A stretch of DNA of 16,330 nt. Source: a virus (taxonomy: Duplodnaviria > Heunggongvirae > Uroviricota > Caudoviricetes). Every line of letters begins with the position of its first letter. Position 1 is the stretch's first letter. The notes beneath the pieces were generated by a model, which saw nothing but the letters and a program-made list of their open reading frames with translations, ran no database searches and had not been told where the DNA came from. Below are positions 1 through 16,330 of this stretch, piece after piece. Location of the stretch: the IMG/VR virus record IMGVR_UViG_2684622620_000010, positions 1-16,330 of that record; one strand, given 5' to 3'. A program made the position numbers and the translations under genes.

Positions 1-25
1 TGAACCGCCCCGGAAATCCTGGAGA
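1..25. repeat. IS terminal inverted repeat (left), copy A
   Basis: First 13 nt TGAACCGCCCCGG are the exact reverse complement of 1298-1310; about 22 of 25 positions match across the IR. Confidence 0.85.
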
Positions 26-54
26 CTAAACTCCCTGAGAAAGAGGTAAACAGG

Positions 55-381
55 ATGACTAAAAATACTCGTTTTTCCCCCGAAGTCCGTCAGCGGGCGA
101 TTCGTATGGTTCTGGAAAGTCAGGATGAATATGACTCACAGTGGGCGGCAATTTGTTCCATTGCCCCAAAGATTGGCTGTACGCCGGAGACTCTGCGTGT
201 CTGGGTTCGCCAGCATGAGCGGGATACCGGGGGCGGTGATGGTGGGCTCACCAGCGCTGAACGTCAGCGTCTGAAAGAGCTGGAACGTGAAAATCGTGAA
301 CTGCGCCGCAGTAACGATATCCTTCGCCAGGCTTCCGCTTATTTTGCGAAGGCGGAGTTCGACCGCCTCTGGAAAAAATGA
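55..381 (+). CDS. IS3-family transposase OrfA (HTH DNA-binding subunit)
   Basis: 108-aa [25 protein letters not shown]... with helix-turn-helix and leucine-zipper-like C-terminus, recognised as IS629/IS1203-type OrfA. Ends in an A6 run overlapping the orfB start. Confidence 0.9.
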
Positions 382-1268
382 TGCCACTGCTGGATAAGCT
401 GCGTGAGCAGTACGGGGTCGGACCGGTATGCAGCGAACTGCATATTGCCCCGTCAACGTATTACCATTGTCAGCAACAGCGACATCATCCGGATAAACGC
501 AGTGCCCGTGCGCAGCACGACGACTGGCTGAAGAGAGAGATACAGCGCGTATACGATGAAAATCATCAGGTGTACGGTGTGCGTAAAGTCTGGCGTCAGT
601 TGTTACGGGAAGGAATCAGGGTGGCCAGATGTACAGTGGCACGTCTCATGGCGGTTATGGGACTTGCCGGTGTTCTCCGGGGTAAAAAGGTCCGTACGAC
701 CATCAGCCGGAAAGCCGTTGCCGCAGGCGACCGCGTAAACCGTCAGTTCGTGGCAGAACGACCTGACCAGCTGTGGGTGGCTGATTTTACTTACGTCAGC
801 ACATGGCAGGGCTTCGTCTATGTGGCGTTTATCATTGATGTGTTTGCCGGATACATCGTGGGGTGGCGGGTCTCATCGTCTATGGAAACGACATTCGTGC
901 TGGATGCGCTGGAGCAGGCGTTGTGGGCCCGTCGTCCGTCTGGCACCATCCATCACAGCGATAAAGGCTCTCAGTATGTGTCACTGGCCTATACGGAGCG
1001 ACTAAAAGAAGCCGGATTACTGGCATCAACAGGGAGTACAGGCGACTCGTATGACAACGCGATGGCTGAGAGCATCAATGGTCTTTACAAAGCGGAGGTA
1101 ATACACCGTAAGAGCTGGAAAAACCGTGCAGAAGTGGAACTGGCCACACTAACGTGGGTGGACTGGTATAACAATCGACGATTGCTGGGAAGGCTGGGCC
1201 ATACTCCTCCGGCAGAAGCAGAAAAAGCTTATTATGCTTCCATCGGAAACGATGATCTGGCAGCCTGA
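378..1268 (+). CDS. IS3-family transposase OrfB (DDE catalytic subunit)
   Basis: 296-aa ORF with DDE motif context ([30 protein letters not shown]). It is in the -1 frame relative to orfA and overlaps it by ATGA. Confidence 0.9.
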
Positions 1269-1285
1269 GTTCACAGATAAAACAC

Positions 1286-15020: not shown

Positions 15021-15074
15021 TGAACCGCCCCGGAAATCCTGGAGACTAAACTCCCTGAGAAAGAGGTAAACAGG

Positions 15075-15401
15075 ATGACTAAAAATACTCGTTTTTCCCC
15101 CGAAGTCCGTCAGCGGGCGATTCGTATGGTTCTGGAAAGTCAGGATGAATATGACTCACAGTGGGCGGCAATTTGTTCCATTGCCCCAAAGATTGGCTGT
15201 ACGCCGGAGACTCTGCGTGTCTGGGTTCGCCAGCATGAGCGGGATACCGGGGGCGGTGATGGTGGGCTCACCAGCGCTGAACGTCAGCGTCTGAAAGAGC
15301 TGGAACGTGAAAATCGTGAACTGCGCCGCAGTAACGATATCCTTCGCCAGGCTTCCGCTTATTTTGCGAAGGCGGAGTTCGACCGCCTCTGGAAAAAATG
15401 A
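15075..15401 (+). CDS. IS3-family transposase OrfA (copy B)
   Basis: Identical 108-aa translation to 55-381. Confidence 0.9.
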
Positions 15402-16288
15402 TGCCACTGCTGGATAAGCTGCGTGAGCAGTACGGGGTCGGACCGGTATGCAGCGAACTGCATATTGCCCCGTCAACGTATTACCATTGTCAGCAACAGC
15501 GACATCATCCGGATAAACGCAGTGCCCGTGCGCAGCACGACGACTGGCTGAAGAGAGAGATACAGCGCGTATACGATGAAAATCATCAGGTGTACGGTGT
15601 GCGTAAAGTCTGGCGTCAGTTGTTACGGGAAGGAATCAGGGTGGCCAGATGTACAGTGGCACGTCTCATGGCGGTTATGGGACTTGCCGGTGTTCTCCGG
15701 GGTAAAAAGGTCCGTACGACCATCAGCCGGAAAGCCGTTGCCGCAGGCGACCGCGTAAACCGTCAGTTCGTGGCAGAACGACCTGACCAGCTGTGGGTGG
15801 CTGATTTTACTTACGTCAGCACATGGCAGGGCTTCGTCTATGTGGCGTTTATCATTGATGTGTTTGCCGGATACATCGTGGGGTGGCGGGTCTCATCGTC
15901 TATGGAAACGACATTCGTGCTGGATGCGCTGGAGCAGGCGTTGTGGGCCCGTCGTCCGTCTGGCACCATCCATCACAGCGATAAAGGCTCTCAGTATGTG
16001 TCACTGGCCTATACGGAGCGACTAAAAGAAGCCGGATTACTGGCATCAACAGGGAGTACAGGCGACTCGTATGACAACGCGATGGCTGAGAGCATCAATG
16101 GTCTTTACAAAGCGGAGGTAATACACCGTAAGAGCTGGAAAAACCGTGCAGAAGTGGAACTGGCCACACTAACGTGGGTGGACTGGTATAACAATCGACG
16201 ATTGCTGGGAAGGCTGGGCCATACTCCTCCGGCAGAAGCAGAAAAAGCTTATTATGCTTCCATCGGAAACGATGATCTGGCAGCCTGA
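15398..16288 (+). CDS. IS3-family transposase OrfB (copy B)
   Basis: Identical 296-aa translation to 378-1268. Confidence 0.9.
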
Positions 16289-16330
16289 GTTCACAGATAA
16301 AACACTCTCCAGGAAACCCGGGGCGGTTCA

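Follow-up and report, generated by a model that had tools for sequence, protein, structure and literature searches.

The DNA window analysed here, which is the whole 16,330-nt stretch of the IMG/VR virus record IMGVR_UViG_2684622620_000010 (positions 1 to 16,330), begins and ends with a complete copy of the insertion sequence (IS) IS629/IS1203 of the IS3 family. Copy A occupies positions 1..1310 and copy B positions 15021..16330, both on the plus strand, and between them lie 13.7 kb of Escherichia coli DNA that start within the DnaB-like helicase gene of a serU-integrated prophage and stop within the adhesin gene yeeJ. The initial annotation of the window, made from its letters alone, had proposed two identical IS copies in direct orientation around this segment. 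Full nucleotide comparison of 1-1310 with 15021-16330 bore this out, as 1310 of 1310 bases were the same in direct orientation, and a repeat finder run on the window picked up the same pair. A perfect repeat of 1.3 kb far exceeds what chance would give.

Both copies have the complete structure of IS629. They measure 1310 bp and are bounded by 25-bp imperfect inverted repeats that match at 22 of 25 positions and have TG...CA ends; in copy A the left inverted repeat (IRL) lies at 1-25 and the right one (IRR) at 1286-1310, so that the element runs from TGAACCGCCCCGG... to ...CCGGGGCGGTTCA. The domain search assigned HTH_Tnp_1 to the 108-aa product of orfA (55-381 in copy A, 15075-15401 in copy B) and HTH_21 plus rve (DDE) to the 296-aa product of orfB (378-1268 and 15398-16288, respectively). 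The two genes overlap at a slippery A6 run (373-378), the orfB frame being open from position 315, and an ALIL pseudoknot (RF01497; 336-452 in copy A, 15356-15472 in copy B) was matched over its full length in both copies with 121.5 bits versus a gathering score of 50. This layout suggests that orfA and orfB are joined by -1 programmed frameshifting at the A6 run. Furthermore, window positions 1-1310 are identical (100%, full length) to loci annotated as "IS3-like element IS1203 family transposase" in chromosomes and plasmids of O157:H7 and other enterohaemorrhagic E. coli (EHEC). Every feature of IS629 membership that could be tested was thus present, and the repeat is a complete IS629/IS1203 element of the IS3 family, which we take to be IS3411-like and a member of the IS51 group of ISfinder. 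Size, inverted repeats, open reading frame (ORF) layout, A6 run and pseudoknot are those of known IS629/IS1203, and the element itself shows no differences; only its location at these two sites has no counterpart in 5,426 complete RefSeq E. coli genomes. An IS629 copy covering at least 80% of the element is carried by 3,043 of these genomes, and the sameness of the two copies in the window is unremarkable because same-sequence copies are common to unrelated strains. The 11 nt next to the inner end of each copy (1311-1321 and 15010-15020) are reverse-complementary at 7 of 11 positions and extend the inverted repeat match, which probably reflects chance or a weak target preference.

Copy A ends in the prophage helicase gene, as the initial annotation had stated. 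The 5' part of this gene (1308..2090, minus strand; DnaB and DnaB_C domains, phrog_19) abuts the element, and the inner flank is CAA at 1311-1313, also as described before. In strain APEC20/16 (NZ_CP127297.1), which lacks the IS, the gene is intact and encodes 463 aa (L001, positions 5389-6780); here the empty site A reads ...GGTTAATCTGGT up to the insertion point and CAAATCCTC... beyond it. The ORF in the window has 260 codons, comprising 259 native codons and a Leu codon (TTG, the reverse complement of CAA), and is then closed by a TGA formed by the last three bases of the IS. The truncated product keeps the Walker A region and has lost most of the DnaB_C domain. With its replicative helicase lost, the serU prophage is probably unable to replicate. 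Full-length versions of the gene are found in only 36 of the 5,426 complete genomes, and nearly all carriers have it as a single copy (two places at most). Just left of the window, at nt 1011-1051 of the helicase gene (L001, about 5730-5770), 41 nt match annotated CRISPR arrays with 95% identity; such arrays occur in at least 20 E. coli genomes among the matches listed, many of them avian isolates, and the stretch looks like the target of a shared CRISPR spacer directed against this prophage family.

Copy B interrupts yeeJ, which encodes an inverse autotransporter adhesin. The window holds the 5' 3.0 kb of the gene (12021..15020, plus strand; IAT_beta, Big_1 and Invasin_D3 domains), cut at nt 3000 of about 7.1 kb, and the inner flank is the TAG at 15018-15020 that had been noted previously. 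APEC20/16 again provides the empty site, reading ...GACGGATAG before and CAACGGGACTG... after the insertion point inside yeeJ. While this comparison confirms the insertion itself, the initial annotation had missed that yeeJ was already inactivated: an additional A (AAA at 12250-12252 instead of the AA of the intact allele) causes a +1 frameshift that splits off a 91-aa N-terminal product, and the downstream ORF (12208-15069) runs 49 nt into copy B, where it stops. The same frameshift allele is present in IS-free APEC20/16 and in 372 blocks of a gene-position index, from strains that differ in the content of their serU/asnT islands. Judged by this distribution, it is a common pseudogene allele independent of IS629. 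As the allele is older than the insertion and widespread, copy B hit an already dead gene, and its insertion was functionally silent because of this common frameshift. Several unrelated lineages have separate IS3-family insertions of their own in yeeJ, which are no more than a few hundred bp from site B but at different positions; among these lineages are the O157 strains 319, 644-PT8 and 180-PT54 as well as KSC64, O145 RM9154-C1, O103:H2 129 and others.

The DNA between the copies has the order of strains without the insertions, a comparison that had been recommended in the initial annotation. Over positions 1311-15020 (13,710 bp), the window and APEC20/16 are colinear and differ by two substitutions and two single-base indels. 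APEC20/16 has no IS at either site, its sequence running unbroken across both insertion points, and so supplies both empty sites. The two indels map to window positions 4009 and 4990; the former falls in the cro/ydaS-like gene, which is intact in the window and annotated as frameshifted in APEC20/16. Seven more complete genomes without either IS match the window over 80-84% of its length, which comprises most of the interior, and six of them show 99.7-99.8% identity over 1311-15020.

This interior begins with the early region of a serU-integrated lambdoid prophage and then passes into ordinary core chromosome. Next to the truncated helicase gene lies a gene for a lambda O-like replication initiator (2087..3187, minus strand; phrog_428, E 4.5e-73), inside which four exact iterons, TGGGTCANNTTGACC, are evenly spaced 22-23 bp apart (2715-2797). 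The iteron search returned these four and one overlapping match with a single mismatch on the other strand, with 0.02 expected by chance, and from this arrangement the iterons are the probable replication origin of the prophage. The immunity region (3418..4695) comprises genes for YdaT (3418-3894, minus strand), the Cro/YdaS-like regulator (3953-4210, minus strand) and a cI-like HTH repressor (4267-4695, plus strand). All following prophage genes are on the plus strand: the early-left genes (6043..8831; phrog_2489) for a 740-aa exonuclease-like protein (6043-8265) and for Gp157 (8262-8831), a gene for a DUF4224 protein (9223-9438) and, beside it, the tyrosine integrase gene (9438-10466), which adjoins serU. 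A 77-bp prophage attachment core (10536..10612) overlaps the 3' part of serU, the gene of tRNA-Ser(CGA) (10552..10641, minus strand). Beyond it, mtfA (10735..11532, plus strand; Peptidase_M90, DgsA anti-repressor) and asnT for tRNA-Asn(GTT) (11633..11708, plus strand) lead to yeeJ, so that serU, mtfA, the tRNA-Asn gene and the yeeJ 5' end are all present, in agreement with the contents first listed for the segment.

In APEC20/16, a second copy of the 77-bp core lies beside yodB (L007, 36440-36516), 44.4 kb away and beyond what the window covers. The element therefore has the layout of a tRNA-integrated prophage, with a tyrosine integrase gene beside serU and the 3' part of the tRNA gene duplicated at the far end. 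The core pair delimits a nearly full-length prophage of 44.4 kb (NZ_CP127297.1, 2305118-2349515) with terminase, capsid, P2-like contractile-tail and lysis genes and a frameshifted portal gene. The window holds the 9.2-kb integrase-to-helicase end of the serU prophage. Relative to this lambdoid/P2-tail hybrid of APEC20/16, the integrase-to-helicase region is the same except for four positions and the attachment core is shared, whereas the helicase gene is interrupted in the window only. The designation "prophage remnant" given initially is thus not established, since what was seen is one end of a prophage, and the closest relative has this prophage at nearly its full length. A search of 50,697 isolated-phage records gave no close relative of the early region (1311-10535), the only matches being Klebsiella phage stretches of 55-130 nt.

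Both insertions are rare. The inner junctions of copies A and B were absent at these sites from the 5,426 complete genomes, and the outer junctions predicted with a 3-bp duplication gave 0 matches in the same set. Scans of contig and genome collections were negative too: viral contigs were searched for both inner junctions, species-representative genomes for the outer-left junction as well as inner junction A, and JGI metagenome contigs for both outer junctions. The exact product of the truncated helicase gene is encoded, however, on the NCBI draft contig NWSD01000043.1 (GCA_002531455.1), which is 100% identical to window positions 1184-12090 and whose examined end stops 127 nt inside the IS. 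The contig is 13,964 bp long, that is 13,710 + 2 x 127, and this length suggests that it reaches the IS at its other end too. Such a pattern is what is expected of a short-read assembly with k=127 in which both contig ends run into a repeat. As junction A is present on an independent short-read contig, it is real and no artefact of the window. A literature search by accession found no publication on GCA_002531455.1.

Three further contigs were considered as junction carriers and rejected. Two of them, L004 and L005, are short-read Logan contigs of unrelated runs. Their last bases, ...GATTTGAC, are those of the uninterrupted gene without any IS, and their ends, which correspond to window positions 1309-1311, lie 2 nt past insertion site A. 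L006 ends exactly at the TTG. We attribute these three partial products, which equal the query, to the selection effect of an exact-product look-up: about 1,000 contigs carry the helicase gene, so a few contig ends in a given 3-nt window are expected. A mosaic boundary at the Logan contig ends was dismissed as well, as the helicase gene is nearly always single-copy and the matches listed run without a break at nt 780.

The sameness and completeness of the two copies, both empty sites and the native context were observed directly, and the arrangement is most likely the outcome of two separate IS629 insertions into the native E. coli chromosome, the pairing being incidental and the bracketed segment no cargo. 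One copy would have been pasted into the DnaB-like helicase gene of the lambdoid prophage at serU and the other, 13.7 kb away, into yeeJ, by then a frameshift pseudogene; the pair would be a by-product of these two events, perhaps of a local hop between the sites. From what is known of the family, each copy would have arrived by a copy-out/paste-in route via a circular intermediate, as summarised for IS3-family elements in bioRxiv 10.1101/2023.06.07.543989. IS629 yields target duplications of 3-4 bp (PMC3271280). The initial annotation was right that the duplication belonging to each copy must lie on its outer flank, beyond the window. From the APEC20/16 empty sites we predict that copy A is flanked by its own CAA or CAAA and copy B by TAG or ATAG. 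If both are simple insertions, the DNA left of copy A would read ...GGTTAATCTGGTCAA(A) and that right of copy B (A)TAGCAACGGGACTG...; the left junction would pass from ...GCGGCGGTTAATCTGGTCAA(A) into TGAACCGCC... and the right junction from ...GGGGCGGTTCA into (A)TAGCAACGGGACTGCAATCG....

These predictions were followed up by exact-product look-ups with 20 sequences, namely 19 predicted fragment products and the full-length helicase as positive control. The control was recovered. Of the fragments only a 204-aa product, "MTRLTAAL...", is recorded, on two ENA contigs; it begins with the TTG that the predicted CAA duplication would supply, and its source is not the NCBI assembly with the junction. 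Neither the chimeric outer helicase products predicted for a k=127 contig edge nor the predicted outer yeeJ products were found in the protein collection by exact look-up. No record was found of the inner yeeJ product (12214-15069) either, though it is expected on NWSD01000043.1 if this contig matches the window there, and exact look-ups therefore give false negatives. A homology search with a chimeric query of IS and helicase C-terminus returned only matches of 57-85% identity and missed the full-length helicase itself.

Several points weigh against two simple insertions. Since the window ends at the IS termini, simple insertion with matching duplications is a step that we infer, and the order and independence of the two events are likewise inferred, as no strain with a single insertion was found in the 5,426 complete genomes or the contig collections scanned. 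The sole outer helicase fragment on record is the 204-aa ENA variant, which is weak evidence either way. Moreover, matching duplications were reported at only 21 of 47 IS629 sites in O157 genomes (PMC3271280), and flank loss or exchange beside IS629 must for this reason be common. At least one copy could accordingly mark no simple insertion but a site whose outer side was deleted by transposase and IEE, or exchanged with another IS629 by homologous recombination, as at the end-point of an inversion or translocation. IEE-dependent deletions beside IS629 can extend over more than 40 kb (PMC9943667), and such an event would also fit the missing records of the k=127 chimeric helicase products, for which the one matching variant is in ENA only, and of the outer yeeJ products. 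The false negatives of the look-ups are clear, though, an aberrant flank was never directly observed, and the inner flanks of the two copies follow the IS-free relative with perfect colinearity, so that we regard a rearranged outer side as unlikely, though a real possibility. If it were true, the missing halves of the helicase gene, of yeeJ or of both would not lie immediately outside the window, and the prophage would truly be a remnant.

Two other explanations treat the bracketed DNA as a unit. In the initial annotation it was suggested that the pair might mobilise the segment, and the 16.3-kb stretch from IS to IS could be a functional composite transposon that moves, or once moved, as a whole by the IRL of copy A and the IRR of copy B. 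Both copies are indeed complete, with intact outer ends and transposase genes, and the window starts and stops exactly at IS termini. Like Tn10- and Tn5-type composite transposons, the arrangement has two complete IS copies bracketing a segment; it differs from them in the direct orientation of the copies, in the copy-out/paste-in mode of the IS3 family, in having native chromosome as "cargo" and in showing no sign of movement of the unit. Its interior consists of core chromosome and the end of a tRNA-integrated prophage in the order found in IS-free strains, instead of foreign DNA, and neither junction occurs in any of the complete genomes. Two or more contexts or replicons were not found either: in the records listed, all matches other than generic IS629 ones placed the region at the yodB-serU-mtfA-asnT-yeeJ locus, and among 72,556 plasmid records the unit was absent except from mislabelled chromosomes, the mtfA-yeeJ part appearing only in very large records, of which the best are chromosomes of 4.7-4.9 Mb filed as plasmids. 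IS3-family transposases, going by what is known of the family, normally circularise a single copy. The suggested mobilisation is unsupported and a composite transposon is extremely improbable. The window could also be a 15,020-bp circle written in linear form and containing only one IS, which would be an excised recombination product or a cycle in an assembly graph with a 1310-bp terminal overlap. The lack of any outer flank would suit such a circle, a short-read contig with IS sequence at both ends is compatible with a circular as well as a linear arrangement, and a phage origin and initiator are present in the interior. Against this, scans of the viral and metagenome contig collections, where contigs with terminal repeats are common, did not turn up the junctions, autonomous maintenance is made unlikely by the core chromosomal genes and the truncated helicase, and a chromosomal arrangement with two copies is the simpler account of the data; we give the circle very little credence. 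Equally slight is the prospect that either the IS-to-IS unit or a 15-kb recombination circle is independently mobile or maintained, be it as a composite transposon of the IS3 family, which would be a rare one, or as a circle resembling lambda-dv. If this were so, the unit or circle would be able to move or persist away from its native locus, and the lambda-dv-like form would carry a phage origin and initiator, an immunity region, an integrase/attachment module, two tRNA genes and mtfA.

Two separate insertions into the chromosome would nevertheless have consequences for the DNA between them. Direct repeats of 1.3 kb serve as recombination substrates, and RecA could use this one to delete the interior. 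The crossover would remove the integrase gene, the immunity region, the origin, the attachment site, serU, mtfA, asnT and the yeeJ 5' end and leave one IS behind; its other product would be a 15,020-bp circle in which a single IS joins ...GGCATGACGGATAG to CAAATCCTCATCG.... The initial proposal of a recombination substrate holds as far as the repeat itself is concerned, which is present, but neither a deletion product nor a circle junction was detected in the 5,426 complete genomes or the contig collections scanned. In addition, transposase and IEE could delete DNA adjoining an IS629 copy.

In EHEC, IS629 is a major cause of inactivated genes and of deletions (PMC3271280; PMC9943667). Polymorphisms of this kind were described by Rump et al. 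2011 (PMC3271280) and by Ooka et al. 2009 and Kusumoto et al. 2011, the latter two as cited in PMC9943667. The window resembles these cases in having one IS629 in a prophage gene and one in a chromosomal gene, paired copies being potential deletion end-points; it differs in that no deletion or excision event is documented for this pair. The structure is ordinary, already known in kind and in line with how IS629 is known to behave in E. coli. Its significance lies mainly at the level of the strain, as IS629 insertions and the deletions they seed are well documented for EHEC and the E. coli strains related to them. The rare lineage of GCA_002531455.1 is marked by the pair, which could be used for typing, and deletion or circularisation of the 13.7-kb interval, if seen, would add one more case of IS-mediated prophage decay by no new mechanism.

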